Source: a virus (taxonomy: Duplodnaviria > Heunggongvirae > Uroviricota > Caudoviricetes). Taken from it: a stretch of 64,000 bases of DNA. Positions 8,723-32,632 of the stretch are shown here, piece after piece (positions within the stretch are counted from its first letter, which is position 1; every line of letters begins with the position of its first letter). The translations under genes were made by a program, and so were the position numbers. The notes beneath the pieces were generated by a model that was given only the letters and a program-made list of their open reading frames with translations, made no database searches and was not told the origin of the DNA. The stretch is from the IMG/VR virus record IMGVR_UViG_3300014963_000512; one strand, 5' to 3'.

Positions 8723-8746
8723 CATTTTTGATTGGAGGTCTGTGAG

Positions 8747-9406
8747 ATGCCAAACTGCTTGGATAATATGCCCTGGCGTTCTTTGAAAGGGCTTGGAAAA
8801 TATGCGGCTGATTTCTTGCAGCTCGGAGATTACCGCAATGTTGTGCTGAAGAACGGTGCGCAGGTTCAGTTTCGCATCATCGGCTTCAATCATGACAAAA
8901 CAAGCGACGGTTCTTTGGCTCCCATTTCGTGGGAGATGGTAGACTGTCTGCCTAACACTTACCCGTGGAATAGACGGGACACCAACGAGGGGTCGTGGGA
9001 GGCAACCCAAATTCGCCACCGACTCAACGATGCGGACGGCGACATCCATCGTCTGATTCCCGATGAGATTTTGGATGTTGTCACGCCAGTCATTAAGCAG
9101 ACAGCCGATGTGTACACAGGAGAAAATCGTATCATTGAGACACTGGATTCTTTCTGGATAAAGTCCGAGAAGGAATTGTATGGGCGCAATATCTACTCTG
9201 CGCCCGGCGAGGGACATTGGTACGAATGGTATCGTCAGGAGGATGTCGCATGGTTCAAGCTTCGCAACGGTAATCCCGAGTACACCATGTTGCGTTCTCC
9301 TGGTTCTGGCAACAGCGGTTGTTTCTGTTATGTCTACAGCGACGGCTGCGCCTACTATGGCTACGCCGGCTACAGTTCTGGCGTCGCTTTCGGCTTCTGC
9401 ACTTAA
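8747..9406 (+). CDS. hypothetical protein with Gly/Tyr/Cys-rich C-terminus (219 aa)
   Basis: ggagg RBS 7 nt before ATG. Confidence 0.55.
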   Translation: MPNCLDNMPWRSLKGLGKYAADFLQLGDYRNVVLKNGAQVQFRIIGFNHDKTSDGSLAPISWEMVDCLPNTYPWNRRDTNEGSWEATQIRHRLNDADGDIHRLIPDEILDVVTPVIKQTADVYTGENRIIETLDSFWIKSEKELYGRNIYSAPGEGHWYEWYRQEDVAWFKLRNGNPEYTMLRSPGSGNSGCFCYVYSDGCAYYGYAGYSSGVAFGFCT

Positions 9407-9598: not shown

Positions 9599-9997
9599 AT
9601 GGCAAAAATCACTATCGCAGGCGACGCAGCTGTCGTAACTTCCGCAATGAAGCTGGAGGACATCAAGACCATTGAGAAGTACCGCCCCAAGGAGCTGGTT
9701 CTCAAGGGCGGCGAGGACGGTAAGGAGCCTATCTTCGCTGTGGGTACCACCAGTGGTGCCGGTAACATCAACGCTTTCGGCGCTTCTTTCGGCGCTGAGA
9801 CCCGCGATGATGAGAAGCTGGCGTGCATCACCCTGTTCCTTGACGGCGTGACCGGCGATGTCAAGGATTGGGTTGCCGACCGTCTGGGCGCCGCCATCAT
9901 CAACCTCAACAAGCTTGAGGAGAAGCTGCCCGCCGTTCTCGATGAGATTGCGGGTGAGAAGGCAACTGTGATGAGCAACATCACGGTCGCTCAGTAA
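9599..9997 (+). CDS. hypothetical protein (132 aa), terminator-flanked and probably highly expressed
   Basis: ggagtacatacatcATG start. Strong terminators on both sides. Confidence 0.6.
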   Translation: MAKITIAGDAAVVTSAMKLEDIKTIEKYRPKELVLKGGEDGKEPIFAVGTTSGAGNINAFGASFGAETRDDEKLACITLFLDGVTGDVKDWVADRLGAAIINLNKLEEKLPAVLDEIAGEKATVMSNITVAQ

Positions 9998-10010
9998 TCA
10001 CGGGTCGCAA

Positions 10011-10045
10011 AACGGGGCGGTTTACACCGCCCCGTTCCGTTTCAC
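10011..10045 (+). terminator. rho-independent terminator
   Basis: aacggggcgg-tttaca-ccgccccgtt followed by ccgtttc. Confidence 0.75.
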
Positions 10046-10079
10046 AACAAAACAAATTTTGAATTAAAGGAGAAACATT

Positions 10080-10307
10080 ATGATTAAGGTTACTGTTGGC
10101 AACAATGTCAAGCGCGAGTCCGTTATCATCGACGAGTCCACTACCCTGCGTGCCTGCCTGGAGGCAAACGGCGTTGACTACACCCGTGGCGTCATGCACC
10201 TCGACGGTTCCTCTTTGAACCCCGGCGACCTCGACAAGACCTTCGCTCAGTTCGGTATCACCGAGAAGTGCTTCCTGCTGAATGTGGTCAAGGCCGATAA
10301 CGCCTGA
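10080..10307 (+). CDS. small protein (75 aa) with a ubiquitin/ThiS-like beta-grasp secondary-structure pattern but no C-terminal Gly-Gly
   Basis: taaaggagaaacattATG start. Layout MIKVTV..ESVIID..TTLRACLEANGVD..VMHLDG..LLNVVKADNA resembles the Ub/ThiS beta-beta-alpha-beta-beta arrangement. Followed by a terminator. Confidence 0.5.
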   Translation: MIKVTVGNNVKRESVIIDESTTLRACLEANGVDYTRGVMHLDGSSLNPGDLDKTFAQFGITEKCFLLNVVKADNA

Positions 10308-10329
10308 TTCACAAGCAATTAAACCAGCC

Positions 10330-10357
10330 GAGCCGCCCGAATGGGCGGCTCTTTCTA
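10330..10357 (+). terminator. rho-independent terminator
   Basis: gagccgccc-gaat-gggcggctc followed by tttct. Confidence 0.75.
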
Positions 10358-10358
10358 T

Positions 10359-10443
10359 GGGGAATTGGCGGAACAGGCAGACGCTGCGGACTTAAAATCC
10401 GCTGGTGCATACCATATCGGTTCGACTCCGATATTCCCCACCA
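10359..10443 (+). tRNA. tRNA-Leu(TAA)
   Basis: Acceptor GGGGAAT/ATTCCCC-A-CCA. Stem GCGGA/TCCGC. Loop CTTAAAA. Long variable arm. Confidence 0.85.
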
Positions 10444-10470
10444 TATAACAAAATGAATAGAGGTGTTCCT

Positions 10471-11934
10471 ATGTTCAAAACAAGCATTTCGTCAACGCCG
10501 TTTACCACGGAAGCTGCCAATAGCTACTTCACCAACATTACCGGCGGTGCTTTCGGCAACGACTGCTCTTTCCTTGCGACGCTTCGTGCCTTAGTTGCAC
10601 CTCGAATCAAAGAGGGAGAGTCCGTCAATCTGGTGTTCGGCTCTTCCGATTATACGGCAGACACTATTCGGAGTGTTCCAGCGGACAGAGCCGTTTTGGC
10701 TGTCTGCAACAACTATGATATGAACGCGACGGGACAGGTTGTTGTTCATAGTTTGCGGGCAGATTCGGACAGCAATTTTGCCAACATGAAAATCATCGCT
10801 GACAAGTTTGCCTCTGTGTATGCGGGGTATCATCGCCTCGAAAAGTTCGCAGAGTTCTACCGCAAGTCTTTCGCCGTAGATTGCTATATCAATCCCGAAC
10901 TTAAAAGCGTTATTATCTTTGCGGACAGCCTCGACATCCGCAAAATGCACTACCTGCAGGTTTCTATCCTTGCATTCCTGCCGTGGTATCTGAACCAGCA
11001 GGAGGGCATCACTGAGGATGAACTTGCGTTGGTCAAGTCCCTTCGTGAGAAGAACTCAGAAGAGTATGAACGCTGTCTTGCCAAACTTGCAGAACGGTAT
11101 GATTTCCGAACCGCAAGAATCCGCCAGCTGTTGAAGGGGTTTGAAACCCGCTATGAGCAGATTGAGTGCGACCGGGTCAGGCAGATGATTCAGAACATTG
11201 ATAGAGAAATCACCCGCCTGAATGACAATATCGGTGAACAGTTCACGAAGCGTAATGAGCAGTGCATTCGTTTGCTGGGGCTTGAGCAGAAAGTTGCCGA
11301 TGGCGGTGAGGACTCCGAAATCATGGAGTACTTCCTGTGTAATACCAAGCTGGTTCTGGAGCGTGTGACCAACACCGATATGTATTTCACGGTCAAGGAC
11401 TGCCTGGAATATTTTGACCGGGATATGGCGGAGCGAATCATCAATCGTGCTACCAGCTTCGTTTATCGTCCTGATGGTGGTTCCGGCCATACAGGTGCAG
11501 CTGCTGAGAAGATGAAAAGGCTGATGACTGAAATCTTTGTCAGCGAAGAGCCACGTTTGAAAATTCGTGTCTGCGCATCGTATCGCTTTGATCTCAACGG
11601 CAGCGTTTCTCCGCAGGGGCATCGGAGCTTTGGCGCAGAGTACGCTGATTATCTTCCCAATCCCCACATCAACGACTACAACTGCATGGGCAACTATACC
11701 ACCACTATCAACAGGCTCCTCAAGAATCACGATTACATCGGTGCGTTGGAGCAGTGCATTGCTTCCTGCAAGAGTCTTAACTGGGGTGACTCTGCGGTTA
11801 TGACTTCGTTTATGCGGTCTATGTGGGGCAACGGCAGCAACAATCGCTGCATCGAACTGCCTGATGGTCGTGTTGTAAAGCCCAACGAAGCCATCACTTG
11901 GTTGGAGCAGCAAGAAGCACAGACAAATGAGTAA
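10471..11934 (+). CDS. hypothetical protein (about 488 aa), first gene of the tRNA-bounded island
   Basis: agagg RBS before ATG 10471. An alternative in-frame ATG lies at 10453. No recognisable catalytic motif. Confidence 0.55.
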   Translation: MFKTSISSTPFTTEAANSYFTNITGGAFGNDCSFLATLRALVAPRIKEGESVNLVFGSSDYTADTIRSVPADRAVLAVCNNYDMNATGQVVVHSLRADSDSNFANMKIIADKFASVYAGYHRLEKFAEFYRKSFAVDCYINPELKSVIIFADSLDIRKMHYLQVSILAFLPWYLNQQEGITEDELALVKSLREKNSEEYERCLAKLAERYDFRTARIRQLLKGFETRYEQIECDRVRQMIQNIDREITRLNDNIGEQFTKRNEQCIRLLGLEQKVADGGEDSEIMEYFLCNTKLVLERVTNTDMYFTVKDCLEYFDRDMAERIINRATSFVYRPDGGSGHTGAAAEKMKRLMTEIFVSEEPRLKIRVCASYRFDLNGSVSPQGHRSFGAEYADYLPNPHINDYNCMGNYTTTINRLLKNHDYIGALEQCIASCKSLNWGDSAVMTSFMRSMWGNGSNNRCIELPDGRVVKPNEAITWLEQQEAQTNE

Positions 11935-11950
11935 GCGGAGGAGGCGCAAA

Positions 11951-12913
11951 ATGAGTAAACCCATTAAGATGACCGAGCAGTACATGGCTGAGTGCCGTGC
12001 GGACTTTGAAAAGGCTCTGCAACTCACAAAGCTTGCAGATGGAAAACTGTCATTCACGAAGGTGTTCACCTGTGGTGACAGAAAAGCAACTGTCGTCTTT
12101 ACCGCTGGAGCATGGGCAAAGATGGCACTCCTTATCAAGGAGTTCGATAAAGAGGTCGCTTGGCATGGTGTTGCACATCGTGCAGCCGACGAAGCCGTAG
12201 ATGAGTACATCATCGAAGACATCGTGGTTTATCCGCAGGAGGTTTCTGGCACCACGGTTGAGATGGATACCGAGAAGTACGCTGAGTGGTTGATGCAGAA
12301 TGCAGACGATGAGCGTTTCAACAACATTCATATGCAGGGGCATTCCCATGTCAATATGCCGACCAGTCCTTCCTCTGTAGACCTCAATCATCAGGAGGAA
12401 ATCCTCAATATGCTGGGGGACGATGATTTCTACATCTTCATGATTTGGAACAAGTCGTTTGTCAGTACAAATAAAATCTATGACCTCAAGAAGAATGTCC
12501 TGTTTGAAGATAAGGACATCACCGTCAAGCTTGAGGGTGAGCATGAGGGGCTGGCCGAGTTCCTCAAGACCGCCAAGGATATGGTCAAGCAGAAAAGCTA
12601 TACCTATGGCAACTATGGCGGATATGGCGGCTACAGTGGCAATCGCCCGCCTTATTCCGGCGCCCCTTACAATCCTCTTCCGGGAAGCAAAAAGGATGAG
12701 AAAGAGGACAAGGGCGGTAAGAAGTCCGATAAGAAGTCTGACGATAAGAAATCGGACAAGAAGTCTGAAAAGTCCGGCGAGAAACCGCGCACAAGAATCG
12801 GTGCGGGTTGGCAAGGAAAGAACGCCAGTCAGCAGTCCATGTGGGACGAAGATGACGATGACTCTGTGTATCCCTATGGAGGCTACAGCGACCAGTATCT
12901 TGGAGGTGAGTAA
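11951..12913 (+). CDS. JAB/MPN(+) metalloprotease-domain protein with a long Gly/Tyr/Lys-rich disordered C-terminal tail
   Basis: ggaggagg RBS. JAMM motif E...HMQGHSHVNMPTSPSSVD (HxHx7Sx2D). Low-complexity tail GGYGGYSGNRPPYSGAPY...KKSDKKSDDKKSDKK. Protein ends ...YLGGE. Confidence 0.7.
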   Translation: MSKPIKMTEQYMAECRADFEKALQLTKLADGKLSFTKVFTCGDRKATVVFTAGAWAKMALLIKEFDKEVAWHGVAHRAADEAVDEYIIEDIVVYPQEVSGTTVEMDTEKYAEWLMQNADDERFNNIHMQGHSHVNMPTSPSSVDLNHQEEILNMLGDDDFYIFMIWNKSFVSTNKIYDLKKNVLFEDKDITVKLEGEHEGLAEFLKTAKDMVKQKSYTYGNYGGYGGYSGNRPPYSGAPYNPLPGSKKDEKEDKGGKKSDKKSDDKKSDKKSEKSGEKPRTRIGAGWQGKNASQQSMWDEDDDDSVYPYGGYSDQYLGGE

Positions 12914-12915
12914 TA

Positions 12916-13593
12916 ATGGCGATGGATTTGTCTAAAAGCTACGAGTATTTTCAGCCTGAAAAGATTGAGGCTCGCATTAACATTGTTGGATGTGGTTCTG
13001 TCGGCGCAACACTGGCAGAGAACCTCGTCCGTCTTGGCATCACCAATCTCGCCCTGTGGGATATGGATGTCGTGAATCCGCACAATCTGGCAAACCAGAT
13101 TTTCCGCCAGCAGGATATCGGTCGCCCCAAAGTGGAGGCTCTGGCAGATATTCTGTTTGAAATCAATCCCGAAATCAAAGATGACCTCAAGCTTTACGGC
13201 AAGGGGTGGAGTGGTCAGCAGCTTTCCGGCTATGTCTTCCTCTGCGTGGACAATATCGAACTGCGCCGCCAGATTGTTGAAAAGCATTTTGACAATCCTT
13301 ATGTCAAAGCGATGCTGGATTTCCGAACTCTGCTGGAATCCGCACAGCATTATGCTGCTGACTGGTCTGACTACAAGATGAAGAAAGACCTGTTGAACTC
13401 CATGAATTTCAGTCATGAAGAAGCGGCTGAGGAAACGCCTGTCTCCGCCTGCGGCATTACGCTGGGTGTTGCACCGACTGTCAGAGCTATCTGCGCACTT
13501 GGCGTTGCCAACTTTGTCAACTTCATTCGTGGCAAGGGGTTGAAAAAGCTTATCATCTTGGATGCGTTCAACTTTATGTTGGACGCTTTTTAA
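12916..13593 (+). CDS. ThiF/MoeB/E1-like adenylyltransferase (ubiquitin-activating-enzyme family, minimal 225 aa form)
   Basis: Rossmann IVGCGSVGATLAENLVRLGI, DMDVVNPHNLANQ and VFLCVDN motifs. Start overlaps the JAB stop (TAATAATG). Confidence 0.8.
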   Translation: MAMDLSKSYEYFQPEKIEARINIVGCGSVGATLAENLVRLGITNLALWDMDVVNPHNLANQIFRQQDIGRPKVEALADILFEINPEIKDDLKLYGKGWSGQQLSGYVFLCVDNIELRRQIVEKHFDNPYVKAMLDFRTLLESAQHYAADWSDYKMKKDLLNSMNFSHEEAAEETPVSACGITLGVAPTVRAICALGVANFVNFIRGKGLKKLIILDAFNFMLDAF

Positions 13594-13627
13594 TCAGCAA
13601 TGAGAAACGAAAGGAGGGCGGTGCATT

Positions 13628-14437
13628 ATGGATACTACCGTTGAACGCCTTAAGGTCGGCACACCGGTCATCATTGGCTCTTACGGTGTCAACAATGATG
13701 AGCCGCACCCTGTTGTTTGGCTGAAAGGCAGTCCAAACTGCGATTTTATCACTGAATGTGCTGTGGATTATCTTTGCTTTGATGCACCAGAAAGAACTGG
13801 AGACGGCAGGCGCAATCTTGGTAATCCCGACTACCGGCTTTCCAATATCCATACATTCCTGAACAGTGACAGAGACGATTGGTTTTGCAAGACACACGAA
13901 GCGGATGCTCCTCCCAATAATGTCTTTTCCAATCGGGCTCAAAGCTATCGTAACCACTACGGGTTTCTGTACTTCTTCGAGGATTACGAGCTTGATAGCT
14001 TGCAGATGCAGCAGTATGTGGTTGACGGTGAGACGATTAGTTCCCTCATTCGGCTTCCTACCATCACCGATATCCTTGATGACCAGTTGAAGCTAAAGCT
14101 GTTTCACAAGAAGGGTATCCGTCCTAAAGCAACGCAAGACTGTGCCGATAAGAAAGGCCGGTTTGGCAATTTCGGCTGGGAGTCTTACATGAACTTCTGG
14201 TTAGCGGGTAAACAGGATGGATTCAGAGATTATGCTTTGACTCTTGGTCGGGCAGGGTATTATGAGAGGAAGTACCCCCGTGACTGCGCAGGGCTTAGAC
14301 CGATGTGCCGGTTGAAACCGGAAACGGCAGTAGTGGTTGATGAAAACGGCGTAGTCCACATCAAACCTTATGCGTTGAAAAACGAAACCTGCACAGATGC
14401 AGAACTGTTCGAGCTTTTAGGTGTGGCGCAGCCTTAA
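13628..14437 (+). CDS. hypothetical protein (269 aa) immediately upstream of the retron-like ncRNA
   Basis: aaggagggcggtgcattATG. Confidence 0.55.
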   Translation: MDTTVERLKVGTPVIIGSYGVNNDEPHPVVWLKGSPNCDFITECAVDYLCFDAPERTGDGRRNLGNPDYRLSNIHTFLNSDRDDWFCKTHEADAPPNNVFSNRAQSYRNHYGFLYFFEDYELDSLQMQQYVVDGETISSLIRLPTITDILDDQLKLKLFHKKGIRPKATQDCADKKGRFGNFGWESYMNFWLAGKQDGFRDYALTLGRAGYYERKYPRDCAGLRPMCRLKPETAVVVDENGVVHIKPYALKNETCTDAELFELLGVAQP

Positions 14438-14449
14438 AATGCGCTATTG

Positions 14450-14771
14450 AACTGTAACGAATTACCCTTTTCGGGGGCTTCACGCCAAAGGCTGAAGTAA
14501 CAAATTGTCGGGGTGGAAAACACCGCCTGCCCAGAGAGGTGACCAGAGACTCCTCCGGAGTCAGCAGGTCACGGACATCCGCCAGGAACTCGAAGGCAGG
14601 GATAACATAACAATCCTGACTTGTCAAGTAATATTCCCCACAAAAACCCACCCAATTACGACAATTACCCTAACTCTCACCAGAAAAGTGCTCCCCAAGG
14701 CAGCTCACTCAGCTCGCTGCAGATGAGCTTCTTTTGATTCAAACGCAGCAGTACTCATGTAGGTTACAGTT
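14450..14771 (+). ncRNA. retron msr/msd-like structured RNA, unit A (upstream of the RT)
   Basis: Flanked by 9-bp inverted repeats a1 aactgtaac (14450-58) and a2 gttacagtt (14763-71). Conserved 5' module CGCCAAAGGCtgAAGTAACAA at 14483. Conserved 3' module catgtaggtt precedes a2. RT start codon lies 28 nt after a2, as in canonical retrons. Confidence 0.6.
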
Positions 14772-14798
14772 ACGACTATAAAAAGGAGGCATAGGGCT

Positions 14799-15935
14799 AT
14801 GGTATATATCACGGTCATGCAATCCCCGATTTATCACCAAATGACGCTGGAAGAGTTCCTCTTTCAAAACTTCCAAGCGCCAACCATATTAAACACAAAT
14901 GTTTCCAACACACGAACCTATGCATATGAAACGGTAAGTGAGCATTTCACAAGCCGCATTGATACGGATGCTCTTATCCGTAAACTGGTGCGCTTTAATG
15001 AGCAAACGGAGGCGCTTCGCACGCAGGAGCGCAGTACTTTGTATGAAACATTCCACATCCCCAAAAAGTCTGGTGGTTTGCGTCGTATTGATGCCCCTAA
15101 GCCGGAGCTGATGAACGCATTGCGGAATCTCAAGACTATTTTTGAGGAGGATTTCCATGCGCTGTATCATACTTCTGCATTCGCCTATGTAAAAAACAGA
15201 TGCACGGTTGATGCGGTCAAGCGTCATCAGAAAAACAACAGCAAATGGTTCGGCAAGTTGGATTTGCACGATTTCTTTGGAAGCACTACGCTGGATTATG
15301 TTATCAAAATGTTTTCTATGGTGTTTCCCTTCAGCGAAATCGTAAAAACTCCCAACGGCGAGGCAGAGTTGAGAAAGGCTTTGGACTTGGCTTTCCTAAA
15401 TGGCGGCCTTCCGCAGGGAACTCCGCTTTCCCCGCTGATTACCAATGTGATGATGATTCCCGTTGACCATAAGCTTGCCAATGCATTCCGGGATTTTGAT
15501 AAACAGCGGTTTATTTATACCAGATATGCGGATGACTTCATTATTTCATCTAAGGTCGATTTCGATGTGCATCGTGTAGAAAAACTTGTGGTGGATACGC
15601 TGCATGAATTTGGAGCGCCATTTACCATCAACGAAAGCAAGACGAGGTATGGTTCTTCCGCAGGCCGGAACTGGAATCTCGGCGTCATGCTCAATAAGGA
15701 CAACGAAATTACCGTCGGCCATAAGAAGAAGCGTCAGTTCCAGTCTATGCTTTACAACTATATTACCGATAAACGCAAGGGTATCTCGTGGCCGAGAGAG
15801 GATATTCAAACTATGCAGGGCTTACATAGCTACTATCGCATGGTAGAGCCGGAGACTATCGATGCCATCGTGAAGCATACCAACGAAAAAATGGAGACAG
15901 ATGTCCTGCGGCTTATCAAAGACGATTTAAGATAA
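14799..15935 (+). CDS. retron-family reverse transcriptase
   Basis: RT motifs FHIPKKSGGLRRI, VDAVKRH (NAxxH-like), KLDLHDFFGS, GLPQGTPLSPLITN, YTRYADDFIIS, ESKTRYG and an NLGVML (VTG-like) region. Collinear with the Ec86 retron RT motifs. aaaaaggaggcatagggctATG start. Confidence 0.85.
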   Translation: MVYITVMQSPIYHQMTLEEFLFQNFQAPTILNTNVSNTRTYAYETVSEHFTSRIDTDALIRKLVRFNEQTEALRTQERSTLYETFHIPKKSGGLRRIDAPKPELMNALRNLKTIFEEDFHALYHTSAFAYVKNRCTVDAVKRHQKNNSKWFGKLDLHDFFGSTTLDYVIKMFSMVFPFSEIVKTPNGEAELRKALDLAFLNGGLPQGTPLSPLITNVMMIPVDHKLANAFRDFDKQRFIYTRYADDFIISSKVDFDVHRVEKLVVDTLHEFGAPFTINESKTRYGSSAGRNWNLGVMLNKDNEITVGHKKKRQFQSMLYNYITDKRKGISWPREDIQTMQGLHSYYRMVEPETIDAIVKHTNEKMETDVLRLIKDDLR

Positions 15936-15942
15936 TCCCTTT

Positions 15943-15970
15943 GGCGGTTTGAGGTTAAACCGCCCTTTCC
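15943..15970 (+). terminator. hairpin after the RT stop (ggcggttt-gaggtt-aaaccgcc) with a weak U-tract. Terminator or RNA structural element.
   Basis: 8-bp perfect stem followed by ctttcc. Confidence 0.4.
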
Positions 15971-16241
15971 TGTAATGGATAATTGCGAAAGCAATGCTTA
16001 TCGCCAAAGGCATAAGTAACAACTTGCTGGGGAGGAACACCCCGCCTCTTCCTGAAGACCGGCTGACGACGCGGCTGCGACCCAGTCGGGCTCGTCATCA
16101 AGCACGAGAAATATAGTCAGTGGTCATTGCGGCACAATGGATTCCACACCAGCAGAGAATTAAAAATAGGAACTAACCGCACCTGCGAGGTGCTCCAGGC
16201 GCCTCGCATCCGGCACGCTTATCCTATGTAGATTACAGGAA
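15967..16241 (+). ncRNA. retron msr/msd-like structured RNA, unit B (downstream of the RT)
   Basis: a1 ttcctgtaat (15967-76) pairs with a2 attacaggaa (16232-41), 10 bp. GNRA hairpin attgc-gaaa-gcaat at 15982-95. 5' module CGCCAAAGGCatAAGTAACAA at 16002. 3' module ctatgtagatt. Confidence 0.55.
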
Positions 16242-16250
16242 CACCAAAAT

Positions 16251-16555
16251 CATTTGCAATGAATAACATCCCGAAAGGAATGTGCTTTGCGCCAAAGGCC
16301 AAAGTAACAATTTGCTGGGAAACGAAGGCCGCCTGCCACCGAAGGCAAACGCGGGTCTTGAGATGCGCATCCGGAAGCACGCACCTCCATCGCCGAATGA
16401 AAACAAGAAGATAAGCAGGCAACGGGACAAGACGCACTGCGGCACAATAGCTTCCCACCAAAAAAAAACCAAATCACGGAACATCGTCGAGCGAATCGCA
16501 GGGCCCTTGGACGGTACCCTGGATACAGGGCTATGCTCCATGTAGATTGCAAGTG
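16251..16555 (+). ncRNA. retron msr/msd-like structured RNA, unit C
   Basis: a1 catttgcaat (16251-60) pairs with a2 attgcaagtg (16546-55), 10 bp including one G-U. Hairpin cc-gaaa-gg. 5' module CGCCAAAGGCcaAAGTAACAA at 16290. Internal block tgcggcacaat shared with unit B. 3' module ccatgtagatt. Confidence 0.55.
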
Positions 16556-16574
16556 AAGAAAGGAATTAGATTCC

Positions 16575-17264
16575 ATGATATATGTGACAGGCGATACTCA
16601 CGCCAATATTGATATTGAAAAGCTTAACACGACAAAATTCCCGCAGCAGAAAAATCTGACAAAGGATGATTACCTGATAATATGTGGCGATTTTGGTTTG
16701 TGCTGGGATGGCTCACGCAGGGAGATGTGGTGGCAAGACTGGCTCACAGCCAAAAATTTCACCACGCTCTGGATTGACGGAAACCACGAAAACTTTGATA
16801 TGCTGTACCAGTTCCCGTTAGAGGATAAGTTCGGCGGCAAAGTAAGACAAATTGCACCGGACATTTATCATCTGGACAGAGGCCAGGTTCTTACCATTGA
16901 TGGCAGGAAAATCTTTTGTATGGGTGGCGCCCGTTCAGTGGACAAGGCGTATCGCACGGAGCATATTTCATGGTGGCAGCAGGAGATGCCGTCAAACGAG
17001 GAGATGGAGCGTGCAGTTTGTGCTCTGGAGCAGAACAACTGGACAGTTGATTATGTTGTGACACACTGTGCTCCCCGCAGTATCCAGACACTGCTGGCAA
17101 GTTGGTACGAAAACGACCCGATGGTCAGTTTTCTGGAGCGTATTCGTCAAGACCTTTGTTTTAAGCGGTGGTACTTCGGTCACTACCATGTAGACAAACA
17201 ACTTAATGACCAGTTTGTCGCCTTGTATAATCGGGTAATCCCAATTTCAGATATGCAGATGTAG
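16575..17264 (+). CDS. calcineurin-like metallophosphoesterase (lambda-PPase/Pnkp-phosphatase-like)
   Basis: Motifs VTGDTHAN, ICGDFG, GNHEN, GHYH. aaggaattagattccATG start. Follows unit C directly. Confidence 0.8.
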   Translation: MIYVTGDTHANIDIEKLNTTKFPQQKNLTKDDYLIICGDFGLCWDGSRREMWWQDWLTAKNFTTLWIDGNHENFDMLYQFPLEDKFGGKVRQIAPDIYHLDRGQVLTIDGRKIFCMGGARSVDKAYRTEHISWWQQEMPSNEEMERAVCALEQNNWTVDYVVTHCAPRSIQTLLASWYENDPMVSFLERIRQDLCFKRWYFGHYHVDKQLNDQFVALYNRVIPISDMQM

Positions 17265-17431
17265 CGGAATAGGTAGACGCCGCAGGGGTCATGCGGTTCG
17301 GCAAAGACACAGCATCATTCAAACCTATTGGGGTTTAAGAAGCTACCTCGGACGGGAACAAAGCCGGTTGTGGACAAGTCGAACAATGCGGGGTGCGAAT
17401 CCCCACCATCTGCACCATCGGCATGGCATTG
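17255..17431 (+). tRNA. tRNA-like element: Leu-type acceptor plus D-arm at the 5' end and T-arm plus acceptor plus CCA at the 3' end, separated by about 100 nt. Probable pseudo-tRNA or disrupted tRNA.
   Basis: GCAGATG-TA-GCGGAATAGGTAGACGC ... GGGGTGCGAATCCCC-AC-CATCTGC-A-CCA. The 5' end overlaps the phosphoesterase stop codon. T-loop reads TGCGAAT instead of TTCGAAT. Confidence 0.3.
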
Positions 17432-19582: not shown

Positions 19583-20788
19583 ATGCTTGAGCTTCAAGGG
19601 AAATACGCTTCGGCAAAAGTATTTACCGATGTGGTCGATAGCGAATCCATTTCTCAGGTCATCAATCTCTTGAACCAGCCCTATGTCGAGGGCAGCAAGG
19701 TTCGTATGATGCCAGACATTCATGCCGGTGCGGGTTGCACGATTGGCACTACCATGACTATCAAGGATAAAATTTGCCCCAACCTTGTTGGCGTTGATAT
19801 TGGATGCGGTATGGAAACCATCCGCCTGAAAGAGACCCACATCGAACCGCAGAAGCTGGATAAGGTTATCCGCGAGGGTATCCCGTCCGGCTTTGCAATC
19901 CGTTCCGTCCCGCATCGTTACGCAAAAGAAATCGATTTGTCGCAGTTGTGCTGCGCAAAGAAGGTCAATACTGACCGTGCCTATCATAGTATTGGTACTT
20001 TGGGCGGAGGCAATCATTTTATTGAGGCGAACAAGGACGATGATGGGAACATCTATATCGTTGTCCACTCCGGCAGCCGCCATCTGGGTCTGGAAATCGC
20101 CAACTTCTATCAGGAAGCTGCTTTCAAGGCACTGACCTCTTATAGCCATGAAGAGATTGAGGCGGCTATTGAACAGCTGAAAGCGGATGGCCGTCAAAAA
20201 GAAATTCAGGCAGTACTGAAGTCCATGAAGTCCAAACATTCACCCGTCCCCAAACCGCTTGCTTATGTGGAGGGTGAGCTCTTTGAGCAGTATCTTCATG
20301 ACATGAAAATTGCCCAGCGTTTTGCTGAGCTGAACCGGCAGACAATGATGGATACCATCGTCAAAGGAATGGAATTCCATGTAACTGAACAGTTTACAAC
20401 GATTCACAACTATATCGATGTGGAGAACATGATTTTGCGTAAGGGTTCTGTGTCTGCACAGGCCGGTGAACGCTTGTTGATTCCCATCAATATGCGTGAC
20501 GGCAGCTTACTTTGCACCGGCAAGGGCAATCCGGATTGGAACTTTTCCGCTCCGCATGGTGCCGGTCGGCTGATGAGCCGCAGCGCAGCAAAAGAGGCAT
20601 TTACTGTGTCTGAGTTCAAAAAGCAGATGGTAGGCATCTACACGACTTCCGTCGGACGCAGCACGCTGGATGAATGCCCGATGGCCTATAAGGGTATGGA
20701 CGATATTGTTGGCAATATCGAGCCGACCGTAACCATTGATGCCGTTATCAAGCCTATTTATAACTTCAAGGCGGGTGATGAAGATTGA
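19583..20788 (+). CDS. rtcB: RtcB-family RNA 3'-phosphate/2',3'-cyclic-phosphate ligase
   Basis: Motifs MPDIHAGAGC, GGGNHFIE, HSGSRHLG. 401 aa. Confidence 0.85.
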   Translation: MLELQGKYASAKVFTDVVDSESISQVINLLNQPYVEGSKVRMMPDIHAGAGCTIGTTMTIKDKICPNLVGVDIGCGMETIRLKETHIEPQKLDKVIREGIPSGFAIRSVPHRYAKEIDLSQLCCAKKVNTDRAYHSIGTLGGGNHFIEANKDDDGNIYIVVHSGSRHLGLEIANFYQEAAFKALTSYSHEEIEAAIEQLKADGRQKEIQAVLKSMKSKHSPVPKPLAYVEGELFEQYLHDMKIAQRFAELNRQTMMDTIVKGMEFHVTEQFTTIHNYIDVENMILRKGSVSAQAGERLLIPINMRDGSLLCTGKGNPDWNFSAPHGAGRLMSRSAAKEAFTVSEFKKQMVGIYTTSVGRSTLDECPMAYKGMDDIVGNIEPTVTIDAVIKPIYNFKAGDED

Positions 20789-22077
20789 TTGCCACGACGC
20801 CACTGTCAGATTCTATCACAAAATTACGCCGTTTGCAGGAAGCAAACGGCTCCATAAGAAAGACCCAGCTGTTACGGGAGTTCAAAGACGATGCGAACTT
20901 CCGTAATTTTTTATATTACGCGCTCAACCCGATGCTCACCTATAAAATTTCGGAACAGACGCTTCGCTCCCCTGTCCGGTATGACTCAGCCATCACACTG
21001 ACAATGACAGACATCTTTTCTGTCTGTGAGCTGCTGTCTAAGAGAAAGGCGTTGGACGCCGGTACGGTGTATCAGGTCTGCGCGTTCGTTCAGAGCGCCC
21101 CGCCGGATGAAGCTGGTGTTTATATCAAGCTTCTTTCCAAGACGCTCCGGCTGGGTGTCACGGCAAAGACCGTGAACAAGGTTATCCCCAACCTGATTCC
21201 GGAGTGGGAGGTTCAGCAGGCGTATCCCATTGACAAGTATCCGCTGAAAGAGAACACAGAGTTTTGGCTGACGCAAAAGCTAAACGGTGTCCGAGCGACT
21301 TATTACAAAGGCAAACTGTACGCAAGAAGCGGCGTTCCCTACGAAGGGCTTGACCACATTCTGGACGCTCTCTGCTTCGATGAAGAGGATAGCTATGTGT
21401 TCGATGGTGAGCTGACGCTTCGTGAGAAGGGTAGCCTCTCAGATAATGAGGCGTTCCGAAAAGCGACCGGTATTATCAACTCAGACGATGGTGATAAAAC
21501 GGTGATTTGTTACACGATTTTTGATGTCCTGACGGTCGAAGAGTTCCACCGTGGGCAGAGCGACGGCAGTTATGGCTACCGCCGTGCTTTCTTAGACCAG
21601 CTTCACCGCTTCATTCCGCAGGATGGCCGGGTCAGTATTCTGCCGGTTCTGTATCATGGAAAAGACCGGAGCAAAATCAGCGAACTGCTGGAGCAGATGG
21701 TTCGTGAGGACAAAGAAGGGTTGATGGTCAACCTTGATGTTCCCTACCAGTGCAAACGGCACAACGGAATCCTGAAAGTCAAACGCTTTTACACGATGGA
21801 CTTGTGTATCCTCCGCTGTGAAGAAGGTAGCGGAAGATTGGCAGGGACTTTGGGTGCGCTTGTGCTCGACTATAAGGGGAATGAAGTCAAGGTCGGCTCC
21901 GGGTTTACCGACGAGCAGCGAGCAACATTCTGGCAAGGGAAAAATGACCTACCGGGTTTGCTTTGCGAAGTAAAGTACAAAGAAATATCCAGTGATAAAA
22001 ACACCGGTGCTGAGAGCCTTCAGTTCCCGGTGTTTATTTCTATCCGAACCGATAAAACCGAAGTCAGCTTCGGATAA
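20785..22077 (+). CDS. ATP-dependent polynucleotide ligase (DNA-ligase-like nucleotidyltransferase, KxNGxR motif I)
   Basis: Motif I KLNGVR, motif III FDGEL, motif IV EGLMVN, motif V LKVK, and an OB-fold region. The TTG start overlapping the rtcB stop is uncertain. Confidence 0.65.
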   Translation: MIATTPLSDSITKLRRLQEANGSIRKTQLLREFKDDANFRNFLYYALNPMLTYKISEQTLRSPVRYDSAITLTMTDIFSVCELLSKRKALDAGTVYQVCAFVQSAPPDEAGVYIKLLSKTLRLGVTAKTVNKVIPNLIPEWEVQQAYPIDKYPLKENTEFWLTQKLNGVRATYYKGKLYARSGVPYEGLDHILDALCFDEEDSYVFDGELTLREKGSLSDNEAFRKATGIINSDDGDKTVICYTIFDVLTVEEFHRGQSDGSYGYRRAFLDQLHRFIPQDGRVSILPVLYHGKDRSKISELLEQMVREDKEGLMVNLDVPYQCKRHNGILKVKRFYTMDLCILRCEEGSGRLAGTLGALVLDYKGNEVKVGSGFTDEQRATFWQGKNDLPGLLCEVKYKEISSDKNTGAESLQFPVFISIRTDKTEVSFG

Positions 22078-22096
22078 ATCAGAGAGGAGGTCTTGC

Positions 22097-22495
22097 ATGA
22101 AAAAACAATCAAAGCCACCGCAGTTCTCCGAATCCATCGGGGCGTTCTGCCGGATGATGGAGGATGCGCAGAAAGATTATGCGTGGAATTATAGCGAGGT
22201 CAACCGCATGGACAGGCTTACGCAGGACTACCTCCACAAACTGGAGCTTGACGGCCTCGACTATAAGGAACGGGCAAAGGTCGCCACAAGTCTTGCTAAG
22301 TGCAGACAGGCACGCCGTGAATATAAGGACACGGTAGAAATCCTTGAACCGCTCGTTCAATTTTTGGAAAGCGACAAAGGCAAAAACCTTTTGAACTTGA
22401 TGCGCGAGGCACTGGGTAAGACCAGAAAGGTCGAGAAGTGCATGGAAACCCGCACATACATACCACGAGTTTTAGAACAGGAGGTAAGCAAGTGA
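22097..22495 (+). CDS. hypothetical protein (132 aa)
   Basis: agaggaggtcttgcATG. Confidence 0.5.
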   Translation: MKKQSKPPQFSESIGAFCRMMEDAQKDYAWNYSEVNRMDRLTQDYLHKLELDGLDYKERAKVATSLAKCRQARREYKDTVEILEPLVQFLESDKGKNLLNLMREALGKTRKVEKCMETRTYIPRVLEQEVSK

Positions 22496-22677
22496 ACATC
22501 GTGTTCTGGCTCATCGTCATCGTTGCACTTGTGCTGTTATGGTTCTGTCTGAGCTTTGCCTTTAAGGGCATTGGCGCATTCGGCCTGCGAATTTACAACG
22601 ATGCGAAAAAGGAAATCTCCGAGGAATCGGAGGAGAAATCTGAAAAAACAACAGAGGAGTTAAAGGATGAAGGGTAA
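22492..22677 (+). CDS. small membrane protein (61 aa)
   Basis: GTG with ggagg RBS. Single TM (IVFWLIVIVALVLLWF) and an acidic tail. Confidence 0.4.
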   Translation: MNIVFWLIVIVALVLLWFCLSFAFKGIGAFGLRIYNDAKKEISEESEEKSEKTTEELKDEG

Positions 22678-23554
22678 AATCGGCGCAATTATTTTGGGTA
22701 TCGTGATGGTCTTCTGCCTGATTGCCTGCATTGTGTGTCTTGAGAAAATTCCCGCCGGTTATGTCGGCGTCGTGTACAACATGAACGGCGGCGTTGATGG
22801 TGAGGTTCTGACACAGGGCTGGCATCTGGTTGCCCCAACCAAGAAGGTGACCCAGTATTCTATCGGTATTGAGCAGTCTTATTTGACAGCTGAGGATAAG
22901 GGTGATTCGCCCAAGGATGAGAGTTTTAACATTCCTACCTCCGATGGTAAGACAGTCCGTGTGAATATTGAGTTCTCATATCGTTTTGATGAGGCGCGAG
23001 TCTCCGAAACCTTTGCTATGTTCAAAGGAAAGTCAGGCGAGGCAATCAAGGATTCGTTCATCAAGCCCAAGGTTATTGCATGGACACAGGAGGTGTCTGC
23101 CAACTATCCCGTCACTGACATCTTCGGCGACAAGCGCACCGAAATCAATGCCGAGTTGGATACCTATCTGCGTGAGAAGTTCAACCAGTACGGCATTATC
23201 ATCGACACGGTGAACTTTACCGACATTTCCGTTGATGAGGAGACCGCCGCCGCCATCCAAAAGAAGGTCACCGCCCAGCAGGAGCTGGAGCTGGCGAATA
23301 TTGAGAAGCAGACCGCAAAGATTCAGGCAGAAAAGGACAGAGAGGTTGCCCAGATTAACGCAGAAAAAGCGGTTATCGAAGCGGAAGCAAAGGCAGAAGC
23401 TCTGCGTATTGCAGCCGAAGCCGAGGCTGAGGCAAACCGTATGATTGCCGGTTCTCTGACCGGTGAGTTGATTGAGAAAATCAAGTATGAGCAATGGAAC
23501 GGCGAACTGCCTACTGTAACCGGTTCCAGTTCCATTATCAGCATCGACCCCTAA
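22667..23554 (+). CDS. SPFH/band-7 (prohibitin/HflKC-like) membrane protein
   Basis: N-terminal TM, PHB domain and a C-terminal Ala/Glu-rich coiled coil (AEAEAKAEALRIAAEAEAEA). Confidence 0.8.
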   Translation: MKGKIGAIILGIVMVFCLIACIVCLEKIPAGYVGVVYNMNGGVDGEVLTQGWHLVAPTKKVTQYSIGIEQSYLTAEDKGDSPKDESFNIPTSDGKTVRVNIEFSYRFDEARVSETFAMFKGKSGEAIKDSFIKPKVIAWTQEVSANYPVTDIFGDKRTEINAELDTYLREKFNQYGIIIDTVNFTDISVDEETAAAIQKKVTAQQELELANIEKQTAKIQAEKDREVAQINAEKAVIEAEAKAEALRIAAEAEAEANRMIAGSLTGELIEKIKYEQWNGELPTVTGSSSIISIDP

Positions 23555-23576
23555 TTAACACTAAGGAGGAATGAGT

Positions 23577-24071
23577 TTGACGACCGCTTTTTATATGTTC
23601 GTTTTGTTTCTGGCAAAGGTTCTGGACAATACGCTCAACACAGCAAAGACAATTCTTGTTCAGCGCAACCGCTGCCTGCTTGCCGGTGTCGCTCTCGGCC
23701 TGTCAAACTTCATTTACCTGAGTATCACAAAAGACATCGTTACCAGCGACAGCACACTCGCCCTTGTGATAGTTTCCATAGCAAGCGGCGTTGGGTGCTG
23801 TCTTGCCGTTGCCCTCAGTAACCGATTCTCAAAAGACAGAACCTATGTGAATGTCATCTTGTCGGATGACAAGGAAGCGATGAAAGAGTTCCGCGATTTT
23901 CTGGCTGAAAATCATATTACCAATGTTGCCACCGATAGCTACACATTGGACTGGAGCCGGAAATCCATTTCCATCACCGCTTATGCTCAAACAAAAGCAC
24001 AGAGCCGTCTGATAGACGAGTACATCGAACGGAGTTTATTGAAATGCAAGAGAGTCATCCGAAAGAATTGA
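23577..24071 (+). CDS. membrane protein (three TM helices plus a soluble C-terminal domain)
   Basis: aaggagg RBS. TTG at 23577 (an ATG at 23571 is too close to the RBS). Confidence 0.5.
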   Translation: MTTAFYMFVLFLAKVLDNTLNTAKTILVQRNRCLLAGVALGLSNFIYLSITKDIVTSDSTLALVIVSIASGVGCCLAVALSNRFSKDRTYVNVILSDDKEAMKEFRDFLAENHITNVATDSYTLDWSRKSISITAYAQTKAQSRLIDEYIERSLLKCKRVIRKN

Positions 24072-24364
24072 GAACGATGGTTTCAACCATTGAGCATTTC
24101 CTTGCCCGTTTTCATCTGGCCGATGATGTCGATACGGTATTTACCAGCGGCTGTTGCTACTGGTTTGCAGTTATTCTGCACTGCCGCTTCCCTGATAGCA
24201 CACTGATGTATGACCAGGTGGAAAATCATTTTGTTACCCAGATACAAGGTCGGCTTTATGACATCACTGGTGATGTGACTGAAAAGTACCAAGTAAAACC
24301 GTGGGATGCGTTGGATGATGAACTCTTAAAAAAGAGAATTATCCGAGACTGCATCCTGTTTTAA
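24044..24364 (+). CDS. hypothetical protein (106 aa)
   Basis: ORF overlapping the upstream gene end. Confidence 0.45.
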   Translation: MQESHPKELRTMVSTIEHFLARFHLADDVDTVFTSGCCYWFAVILHCRFPDSTLMYDQVENHFVTQIQGRLYDITGDVTEKYQVKPWDALDDELLKKRIIRDCILF

Positions 24365-24380
24365 TTAGGAGGAAAGTTTC

Positions 24381-25466
24381 ATGCGACATTTAGCTACTAT
24401 TCGTGAGATTACAACCCTCCGTCCGATTGCAGGAGCAGACCGCATCGAGGTTGCTCAGGTTGACGGATGGGAGTGCGTTGTCCAGAAGGGCGAGTTCCAC
24501 ACTGGGGAACACATCGTATATATCGAAGTTGATTCCATTGTCCCAGAGAGACCTGAGTTTGAGTTTTTGCGTGACCGTAAGTTCCGTGTCCGCACCATTA
24601 AGCTTCGTGGTCAGGTCAGTCAGGGCTTGGTTCTCCCGCTGTCCATCTTGCCAAACGGCGCTCCCGCCGATTTGGGTGCCGATGTGACCGATGTTTTGGG
24701 CATCAAGAAATATGACCCTGAAGCACAGCAGGAGGCGCAGCTGCTGACCAAGCAACCCGCCAAACCTAAGAGCGCACTGGTGCGATTCCTTATGCGCTTC
24801 AAGTGGTATCGTAAGCTGTTCATGAAGTCCAAGCGCAAGGGTGGTTTCCCTGATTGGATTGTTAAGACCGATGAGACTCGCATCCAGAACCTTACTGCGC
24901 TCTTTGAGGCAGAGCGTAACAAGGGGACAGAGTTTTCCGTTACGGAGAAGATGGACGGTCAGTCAGCGACTTACTATCTGCGTAAGGTTTCCAGACGCAA
25001 GTATGAGTTCGGCGTGTGCAGCCGCAATATCTATCTCGGTACACCGGACAACAGTTCCTACTGGACAGTTGCCAAGAAGTACAACATCGAAAATGTGCTG
25101 CGGCAGCTCATCGGTGATTATGAAACCATCGTTTTACAGGGTGAGATTTGCGGCAACCAGATTCAGGGCAACAAGTATCACATCAGCGGTTATGAACTGT
25201 TTGCGTTCAACCTGATTTTCCCTGACCATAAATGCACGACTGCGGAAATCAAGGAGTTGCTGGCGCCTTATGGCATTCGTTCCGTTCCCATCGTTGAAGA
25301 GGGCAAAACGCTGCCGGATACCATCGCAGAGCTGGTGGAGTATTCCAAAGGATATTCTGTGGTTCGTAACGGTCAGAAGCGTGAGGGCGTTGTCATGAGA
25401 AATGTCAAAAGCAACATCAGCTTCAAGGTCATCAACCCGGACTTCCTGCTGGCAGAAAAGGATTGA
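24381..25466 (+). CDS. ATP-dependent RNA ligase (Rnl-family nucleotidyltransferase with an N-terminal OB-like domain)
   Basis: KxDG motif TEKMDGQS. Motifs VLQGEICG and EGVVMRN. ggaggaaagtttcATG start. Confidence 0.75.
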   Translation: MRHLATIREITTLRPIAGADRIEVAQVDGWECVVQKGEFHTGEHIVYIEVDSIVPERPEFEFLRDRKFRVRTIKLRGQVSQGLVLPLSILPNGAPADLGADVTDVLGIKKYDPEAQQEAQLLTKQPAKPKSALVRFLMRFKWYRKLFMKSKRKGGFPDWIVKTDETRIQNLTALFEAERNKGTEFSVTEKMDGQSATYYLRKVSRRKYEFGVCSRNIYLGTPDNSSYWTVAKKYNIENVLRQLIGDYETIVLQGEICGNQIQGNKYHISGYELFAFNLIFPDHKCTTAEIKELLAPYGIRSVPIVEEGKTLPDTIAELVEYSKGYSVVRNGQKREGVVMRNVKSNISFKVINPDFLLAEKD

Positions 25467-32387: not shown

Positions 32388-32470
32388 GCTTTGTAGATTT
32401 GCTGTTATACATATTCACTTTCAGCAGCTTTTCGCCAAAGGCAAAAGTAAGAGTTCGCCACTTATGTTCG
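32388..32470 (+). repeat. Degenerate fourth copy of the retron-unit modules: ccgctttgtagattt followed 34 nt later by CGCCAAAGGCaaAAGTAAgAg
   Basis: Sequence identity to the 5' and 3' modules of units A-C. Followed by a long imperfect hairpin (gttcgcaatccgaca...tgtcggattggcgaac, 32450-32552) that contains a terminator-like stem gcccgc-ttc-gcgggc plus a T-run. Confidence 0.5.
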
Positions 32471-32632
32471 CAATCCGACAGCCCGCTTCGCGGGCAGTCA
32501 ACTTTTTTCTTGCTCGCATTGCAAGCAACGCTCGCAAGTGTCGGATTGGCGAACAATGTTGATGCATATCGGTTTGGGGCTTTAGAAAAACGACCGATAC
32601 GGAAAGCGGTATAGAAACGGAGGTAATTTCAA

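Follow-up and report, generated by a model that had tools for sequence, protein, structure and literature searches.

Conserved association of a Bil-like ubiquitin-like protein cassette with a multi-ncRNA retron in phage genomes

The DNA analyzed here, a 64,000-nucleotide stretch of the IMG/VR virus record IMGVR_UViG_3300014963_000512 (Caudoviricetes), hereafter the window, to which coordinates refer unless another locus is named, encodes a ubiquitin-like protein (Ubl) together with a JAB/JAMM metalloprotease, an activating enzyme (E1) and a candidate conjugating enzyme (E2), followed by a retron, that is, a retron-type reverse transcriptase (RT) accompanied by several non-coding RNAs (ncRNAs). 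Our comparisons, which covered at least about 230 phage and metagenome-assembled genome (MAG) loci in all, the core being followed across more than 200 related loci, show that this phage-borne union of a Ubl cascade, resembling the bacterial Bil systems, with a multi-ncRNA retron is conserved and widespread in a family of gut phages, and it appears to be undescribed. We tentatively propose that the cassette and the retron are functionally coupled.

The association was recovered in three differently seeded searches. Using the RT as seed, 71 IMG/VR loci were retrieved at 41–99% identity, 59 of them with enough sequence, and E1, JAB and the 488-aa candidate E2 (p488) were present in 58 of these 59. 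Using E1 seeds, the RT was found in 78 of the 79 informative loci from viral contigs, the remaining one being ended by the contig edge. In species-representative genomes, the same seeds gave 59 loci with room downstream and 58 with room upstream, among which the RT was present in 58/59 and p488 together with JAB in 57/58. This co-occurrence holds for E1 identities as low as 47% and RT identities as low as 34%, and the linkage is kept through swaps in the order of the Ubl gene and of its 132-aa partner (up132), through insertions between E1 and RT and through the turnover of the flanks. Indeed, the six core genes (up132, Ubl, p488, JAB, E1 and RT) persist down to 19–47% identity while the flanking genes turn over completely, and in the most distant loci they are the only window genes kept within ±10 kb of the RT. 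By tblastn, the order up132, Ubl, p488, JAB, E1, RT, with or without a 269-aa protein (p269) before the RT, is conserved in nearly all RT-seeded loci, and the core around the RT consists of an ncRNA, the RT and one to three further ncRNAs. The conserved core of the window spans 9599–16556, with passengers inside (Table 1). The link between E1/JAB and a retron, which an original prediction made from the sequence alone had drawn from this one locus, is thus real and conserved, and the gene-neighbourhood conservation it had proposed to look for is found widely in viral contigs and genomes.

Some loci depart from this arrangement. In L180 (7009–10675), an ncRNA and the RT lie between JAB and E1, and a second ncRNA follows E1, while p488 and JAB have been deleted in L230. 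In a close relative of the window, L069 (9998–10572), the last 82 RT codons and ncRNA 2 remain, the part from ncRNA 3 through a DUF3990 gene is missing and the upstream 10 kb are unrelated to the window, which may reflect a natural deletion, mosaicism of the genome or a chimeric assembly.

Table 1. Positions of the module genes, ncRNAs and passengers in the window.
Feature	Position	Strand	Remarks
up132, 132-aa conserved protein	9599–9997	+	Homologues adjoin the Ubl gene
Ubl, 75-aa single beta-grasp	10080–10307	+	AlphaFold2 fold; C-terminus K-A-D-N-A
Terminator-like hairpin after Ubl gene	10330–10351	+	9-bp stem (8 GC pairs), then T-run; consensus match only
tRNA-Leu(taa)	10359–10443	+	ARAGORN and Rfam; passenger within the module
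p488, 488-aa candidate E2-like enzyme	10468–11934	+	UBC/RWD-like C-terminal domain with invariant His400 and Cys406
JAB/JAMM metalloprotease	11951–12913	+	~200 aa plus ~110-aa low-complexity tail; alternative ATG at 11927
E1, 225-aa single-domain ThiF adenylating enzyme	12916–13593	+	Pfam ThiF, 2e-23
p269, 269-aa accessory protein	13628–14437	+	Outside the conserved core
ncRNA 1	14446–14775	+	a1 14446–14458; candidate branching G 14459; two msr hairpins; a2 14763–14771; covariance model 72.5 bits, E 1e-14
RT, 378-aa retron-type, YADD motif	14799–15935	+	~70-aa N-terminal extension
ncRNA 2	15964–16241	+	a1 15964–15976; G 15977; a2 16232–16241; covariance model 76.5 bits
ncRNA 3	16248–16556	+	a1 16248–16260; G 16261; a2 16546–16556; covariance model 77.2 bits
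Metallophosphoesterase, 229 aa, accessory	16575–17264	+	Pfam Metallophos 2.4e-11; phrog_1649 2e-40

The Ubl and its 132-aa partner sit upstream of the tRNA-Leu and had been overlooked in the original prediction. The AlphaFold2 (AF2) model of the Ubl is a beta-grasp (predicted local distance difference test, pLDDT, of 90) whose best structural matches are conjugated Ubls, BilA among them, and 1512 homologues of this 75-aa protein were found in a large protein collection. The C-terminal consensus of the family is K-x-D-N-A. Some homologues carry one or two residues more (e.g., DNAA) and keep D-N-A intact, and the deepest branch alone has D-G-G followed by R-Q (...K-S-D-G-G-R-Q). In the alignment, the terminal Ala takes the position held in ordinary Ubls by the terminal Gly, and the extra residues after D-N-A or D-G-G imply a processing step, which would fit pre-processing by JAB. 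The partner, up132, adjoins the Ubl gene in 54 of the 59 RT-seeded loci and in most E1-seeded loci. Searches of Pfam, PHROG and the PDB gave no match for it beyond a weak, non-significant one to RRM (E = 0.06), and no relationship to the Ubl itself was detected by hhalign against the Ubl profile (probability 0.3%). In three independent assemblies (L082–L084), an identical up132-Ubl pair is present on both sides of the module; the two copies in L082 (9120–9831 and 17269–17980) lie ~8.1 kb apart.

The E1 and JAB assignments were both confirmed. The E1 is a clear ThiF-family protein by its Pfam match (Table 1), in which the GxGxxG motif, D49, D51, D112, R117 and Cys179 are invariant, Cys179 being inside the adenylation domain, and its profile matches in the PDB include the active adenylation domain of Uba1 (7e-17), UBA5, TcdA, MoeB, MccB, ThiF and Cap2. 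The JAB protein is only weakly matched by hidden Markov models (Pfam 0.095, PADLOC 5e-4). Nevertheless, its JAMM motif (E...HSHx7Sx2D) is intact, with E68, H131, H133, S141 and D144 invariant across homologues, and its profile aligns to Rpn11 across this motif (E = 0.05). Its tail (12560–12913) is G/Y-rich, then K-rich, then D/E/Y-rich, a character kept family-wide although the sequence varies.

The AF2 model of p488 (pLDDT 89) comprises an N-terminal α/β domain, a long helix (residues 225–277) and a C-terminal α/β domain. Among homologues down to 19% identity, W173, H400, C406 and N438 are the sole invariant residues, and H400 and C406 lie in the C-terminal domain, in the loop between its fourth strand and three helices. 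In the UBC fold, E2s bear their HPN motif and catalytic cysteine in that loop, and we infer from the model that the placement of H400 and C406 may correspond to this site. The model also shows weak UBC/RWD fold matches, BilB included. In contrast, a Foldseek comparison of the model with the PDB gave no match below E = 0.28, a profile search against the PDB returned coiled-coil noise only, and no match was found in Pfam, NCBIfam, PHROGs or PADLOC, even when 21 diverse members were scanned one by one. The family itself is very large, with 2193 clusters at 50% identity, of which 946 fall below 1e-30, nearly all of its members being ~480–500 aa long among the 150 matches listed, and its alignment was too divergent to seed a scan of the collection. 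The original prediction listed this protein as a candidate effector, E2-like or target component; with the weak fold matches and the invariant His/Cys pair, we regard p488 as a candidate E2-like conjugating enzyme, slightly more likely than not.

The other half of the module is a retron, as predicted, since the top PDB and PADLOC matches of the RT are retron RTs. Its best NCBIfam family is the retron St85 family (2.2e-52, with 178 bits vs. a cut-off of 235), its PADLOC match is to RT_II-A (5.6e-48), and the best PDB matches (3e-23 to 2e-12) are Ec83 (3e-23), Ec78 (5e-18), Ec67 and Kva2, a group II intron RT following at 5e-10. In the alignment with Ec83, NAKIH is replaced by AVKRH and VTG by NLG, leaving the H and the G alone, each of them conserved to at least 95% within the family. 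The H of NAXXH and the G of VTG are also the most conserved residues of these motifs in Mestre et al. (2020). The N-terminal extension of ~70 aa is conserved.

The three ncRNAs of the original prediction were likewise recovered, each with a match to the covariance model (CM), an a1/a2 helix and a G directly after a1; with the CM, which was built from the 5′ part, the full copies detected in the window number exactly three (E 1e-14 to 1e-16). Common to all of them are a 52-nt box and, on the 3′ side, the box ATGTAGrTTrCA, and their folds are closed by the a1/a2 stem in ncRNA 1 (minimum free energy fold, z = −3.2), ncRNA 2 (z = −4.3, with 10 contiguous base pairs) and ncRNA 3 (11 contiguous base pairs). 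In 25 family units, the two 5′ hairpins covary, 88% of cells being paired vs. 73.5% in shuffles (0/500 shuffles reach 88%), and hairpin 2 reaches 99% pairing and includes four doubly changed pairs. Applied to 12 orthologous upstream units, RNAalifold recovered a1/a2 and both hairpins, with 15 of the 23 pairs covarying, and the msd parts of these units could not be aligned, i.e., they are hypervariable. A complementary a2 (7–13 bp) is found 250–370 nt downstream of a1 in ~45 of the 49 family units examined, the G after a1 is invariant, covariation of a1/a2 is abundant across the family, and a conserved ...AG stands just 5′ of a2. No Rfam family covers these ncRNAs. In relatives, a single unit precedes the RT, separating it from E1, and one to three follow the RT, some relatives having an extra unit 7–9 kb downstream. 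The multi-ncRNA content (two to four per RT) is therefore a trait of the whole family. Elsewhere in the window, a partial msr-like element (32400–32450, context 32392–32519; CM E = 0.0016) has both hairpins, including GCUUUUCGCCAAAGGCAAAAGU, without a1 or the branching G, and is followed by a terminator hairpin; it could be an orphan RT-binding RNA.

The extent of the module differs from that originally proposed, a tRNA-bounded accessory island at 10444–17254. The six open reading frames (ORFs) named there are all found on the + strand at the positions of Table 1, with the small gaps and overlaps described. The tRNAs, however, do not bound the module, because the conserved genes begin upstream of tRNA-Leu and this tRNA is absent from the distant loci: it lies between the Ubl gene and p488 in closer relatives only, and a tRNA-Met takes its place in L035. 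Nor is the region distinct in composition, its GC content (0.46–0.50) being that of its surroundings, and family-library matches (Pfam, NCBIfam, PHROGs, PADLOC) included no integrase within 10444–17254. An island integrated at a tRNA was therefore rejected, given the absence of a GC shift, of tRNA-Leu in distant relatives and of an integrase in this region.

Two of the proposed components proved to be outside the core. The 269-aa protein, suggested as a missing component of the module, occurs in 33/59 RT-seeded and 46/79 E1-seeded viral loci, and none of the distant relatives has it, so it is not a core component. Over its N-terminal 100 aa, it matches phrog_10993 ("Hoc-like head decoration", 1e-10), and it has no match in Pfam. 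A second variable protein, of 224 aa, flanks the module (8732–9406) and shows a weak DUF6273 match; a relationship between p269 and this protein was considered and is not detectable by BLASTP. The metallophosphoesterase was correctly identified but is not a core component, as its gene was recovered in 37/66 RT-seeded and 39/79 E1-seeded viral loci and is missing from nearly all distant relatives. p269, the metallophosphoesterase and the tRNAs are dispensable passengers.

If the gene content and the conserved co-occurrence are clear, the functional coupling of the Bil-like cassette to the retron is a more tentative reading, which we hold at slightly less than even confidence, and several observations weigh against it. 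In L192 (10688–11763), the cassette is kept with an ncRNA downstream of E1 and there is no RT within 10 kb, the 330-aa ORF downstream of E1 not being an RT. Unrelated genes, p269 and others, often lie between E1 and the retron. Terminator-like hairpins are found within the module, at the 3′ end of E1 and after the Ubl and RT genes, and those after the Ubl and RT genes do not support the single transcription unit originally suggested. The Ubl ends in Ala, whereas Gly is obligatory in studied Ubls, the NAXXH (AVKRH) and VTG (NLG) motifs of the RT are degenerate, and the msd sequences match nothing in the rest of the window. Finally, all loci seem to come from one broad lineage of large phages, so that descent is not fully separable from functional coupling.

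Several of these points would also be expected if two independent modules were simply neighbours, co-inherited in a conserved early-gene block of a single lineage of large Clostridia phages. The genes inserted between E1 and the retron (p269 in the window, larger inserts in L148, L154 and L161), the terminator-like hairpins located at the 3′ end of E1 and behind the RT, and the RT-less locus L192 are all compatible with such independence, as are the stand-alone (msr-msd)-RT cassettes noted by Mestre et al. (2020). Nevertheless, exactly six genes persist to 19–47% identity as their flanks turn over completely, the association outlasts changes of gene order, including the nesting of the RT between JAB and E1 in L180, and co-occurrence is near 100% in the three differently seeded searches. 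Therefore, we consider mere co-inheritance of independent modules unlikely.

A functionally coupled module could work as follows. The Ubl would be made in excess, a terminator-like hairpin following its gene, and JAB would trim those Ubls that bear extra C-terminal residues and could also reverse conjugation. E1 would adenylate the C-terminal carboxylate of the Ubl (that of Ala here, of Gly in the deepest branch) and take the Ubl onto Cys179, from which it would be handed to Cys406 of p488 in a putative thioester relay. Because no E3 is encoded, the extra domains of p488 would choose the target. The RT would copy the two to four ncRNAs, with their conserved msr and hypervariable msd, into multicopy single-stranded DNAs (msDNAs). 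By analogy with bacterial retrons, RT and msDNA would form the sensing or regulating half, physically or through regulation linked to the conjugation cascade, which would stand in the effector's place. A second analogy is offered by the cyclic-oligonucleotide-based antiphage signalling system (CBASS), where E1, E2 and JAB activities regulate a nucleotide-polymerizing enzyme. A role in conflict seems likely, either in counter-defence against the host or in the exclusion of competing phages, as suggested by the tRNA and RNA-repair neighbourhood of the module.

A more specific version of this coupling, in which the msDNAs are exchangeable specificity or sensor elements for Ubl conjugation, directing msDNA-dependent tagging of host-defence or rival-phage proteins, or of the msDNA itself, is in our opinion rather doubtful. 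If true, this would be the first retron with a ubiquitin-like conjugation output and the first complete Ubl cascade encoded by a prokaryotic virus. We give still less weight, considering it quite improbable, to the rival idea that the Ubl is covalently joined to the msDNA or to the RT, or that Ubl tagging takes its specificity from the hypervariable msDNAs as exchangeable adaptors; in place of a sensor-effector pair, the module would then perform nucleic-acid-directed Ubl conjugation or form a protein-DNA conjugate. Such schemes would accommodate the hypervariable msd, present in two to four copies beside a conserved msr, RT and Ubl, the unusual conserved Asn-Ala C-terminus of the Ubl, the conserved ~70-aa N-terminal extension of the RT and the capacity of E1-family enzymes for non-protein linkages, MccB being among the E1 profile matches together with PaaA. 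However, they have no direct support, no match to the msd sequences was found elsewhere in the window, and the intact D-N-A of the extended homologues, with its Ala aligned with Gly, suggests ordinary carboxylate activation.

Among the known systems, functional coupling aside, the cassette is closest to BilABCD (types I and II), which are bacterial anti-phage systems of ubiquitin-like conjugation. The Bil operon order is Ubl-E2-JAB-E1 (PMC10557695; PMC11601596), and the same order, with the E2 identity tentative, is kept here in nearly all related loci. Both have a JAMM protease and an E1 adenylation domain with a conserved Cys, neither has an E3 gene, and some Ubls of our family carry short extensions past the conjugation residue, as reported for BilA homologues. 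In contrast, BilA has a fully conserved C-terminal Gly, whereas the Ubl here is a single beta-grasp ending in Asn-Ala, and the Bil E1 has the architecture IAD-AAD-CYS (inactive and active adenylation domains and a cysteine domain; PMC11601596), whereas the E1 here is one 225-aa ThiF domain. The candidate E2 also differs, with its 488 aa, extra domains and no sequence similarity to BilB. Moreover, this module has an additional conserved 132-aa partner and is almost always found with a retron RT and its ncRNAs, and it is phage-encoded among replication and RNA-repair genes rather than located in bacterial defence islands. The module is therefore Bil-like yet is not to be filed as Bil, since it departs from Bil in two defining features, the C-terminal Gly and the E1 architecture, and its context is viral.

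In type II CBASS, there is a precedent for a nucleic-acid-producing sensor enzyme under the control of conjugation machinery. The E1 here matches the Cap2 profile, but E1 and E2 are not fused (the PADLOC E1-E2 models match the Rossmann part of E1 only), no CD-NTase (cGAS/DncV-like nucleotidyltransferase) was found among the module proteins in Pfam, NCBIfam, PHROGs and PADLOC scans, and the Ubl is free, whereas in CBASS the C-terminus of the CD-NTase itself is conjugated. In the Bub systems (6E/DUF6527), which occur in contexts associated with conflict, a Ubl is likewise accompanied by E1, E2 and a peptidase (PMC11601596). The present module differs from them in having no Ubl-E2 or JAB-E1 fusions and no DUF6527 serine protease, and in its conserved cysteines, Bub acting via oxyester intermediates.

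The module also has in common with sulfur carrier pathways (ThiS-ThiF, MoaD-MoeB, CysO-MoeZ-Mec+, QbsCDE) its small E1 of a single domain, its beta-grasp protein and its JAB protease, and it could in principle be one of them, thiolating tRNA or another nucleic acid, with the RT unrelated to it. The minimal ThiF/MoeB-like E1 and the tRNA and RNA-repair genes around the module would agree with this. Nevertheless, the Ubl ends in Asn-Ala instead of Gly-Gly, the conserved genes include no sulfur-donor or -acceptor enzyme (rhodanese, cysteine desulfurase or PP-loop thiolase), the best structural matches of the Ubl are conjugated Ubls including BilA, and the gene order together with the conserved Cys/His E2-like protein fits a conjugation cassette, making a sulfur carrier very improbable.

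Compared with described retrons, the RT groups with retron RTs (closest to the Ec83, Ec78 and St85 family) and shares with them an ncRNA layout directly upstream of the RT and conserved partner genes adjoining it. It differs in the two to four ncRNAs per RT, placed on both sides of it and sometimes kilobases off, in being phage-borne, in the ~70-aa N-terminal extension and in the reduction of NAXXH and VTG to H and G. The partners are also different, as a Ubl, an E2-like protein, JAB and E1 occur in none of the 13 described types (I–XIII), none of them figures in the PADLOC retron effector models, and ubiquitin, JAB and ThiF are unmentioned in Mestre et al. (2020). The literature searched, which covered few subscription-journal papers, so that absence is not proof, describes no retron with ThiF, JAB or ubiquitin-like partners and no multi-ncRNA or phage-encoded retron of this kind; within it, the original statement that no described retron type has E1 or JAB partners holds. 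An RT of another retroelement (a diversity-generating retroelement, a group II intron or an Abi/DRT-like element), with the repeated RNAs being something else, is scarcely credible and was rejected: the sub-threshold St85 score, the degenerate NAXXH and VTG and a match to a group II intron RT model (7.5e-23) are outweighed by top PDB and PADLOC matches that are all retron RTs, group II intron RTs scoring far lower, by the covarying retron RNA layout (a1, G, msr hairpins, msd, a2) abutting the RT and by the absence of intron domains, maturase features or a template/variable repeat pair among the features seen.

To our knowledge, retrons and bacterial Ubl systems (Bil, Bub, CBASS Cap2/3) are each known solely as bacterial anti-phage defence and have been described separately, whereas here they are locked together on the side of the virus. 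If the coupling is functional, it would represent a new class of retron partner, with conjugation in place of a toxin, and would indicate that phages deploy full Ubl cascades; it would also explain the purpose of multi-ncRNA retrons with hypervariable msd. Such a module would further provide a natural system of one RT with several templates for retron-based genome editing, and a minimal E1 (225 aa) with a non-Gly Ubl for studying the evolution of ubiquitin-like activation.

All genes of the window lie on the same strand, and the part of the phage genome that it represents is that of replication and RNA repair: in addition to ten tRNAs, there are RtcB, a DNA ligase, an RNA ligase, a CCA-adding enzyme, DnaB, a primase, a DNA polymerase and NrdD. 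The full tRNA/RNA-repair set is located at 19583–25466 and 37307–39689 (RtcB, DNA ligase, RNA ligase, a nucleotidyltransferase and the CCA-adding enzyme) and, together with the ten tRNAs, suggests that the phage counters tRNA nucleases of the host. At 43589–44539, there is an integrase-like ORF (phrog_5830, 7e-14), and the phage may therefore be temperate. A megablast of the region against INPHARED phages gave no match. The loci are IMG/VR viral contigs and MAG regions of phage-like character; the MAG labels are mostly Clostridia (Oscillospiraceae, Acutalibacteraceae, Ruminococcus, Christensenellaceae, Lachnospiraceae), and the flanks of a distant module copy in an isolate genome are phage-like.

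Other RNA elements were observed in the window and its relatives. At the left end of the window, RAGATH-16 (164–235), RAGATH-4 (412–548) and RAGATH-36 (2333–2461) score above the Rfam gathering thresholds, and a related phage contig (L044) has a tmRNA (transfer-messenger RNA) gene at 14211–14629, inside its tRNA cluster. The tRNA-like element proposed to start at 17255 is called by neither ARAGORN nor Rfam, but tRNA-like folding features are present there: the element (17255–17413) overlaps the stop codon of the metallophosphoesterase gene and comprises an acceptor stem of 7 bp, a hairpin resembling a T-arm and a CCA end, while an insert of ~80 nt occupies the place of the variable arm.

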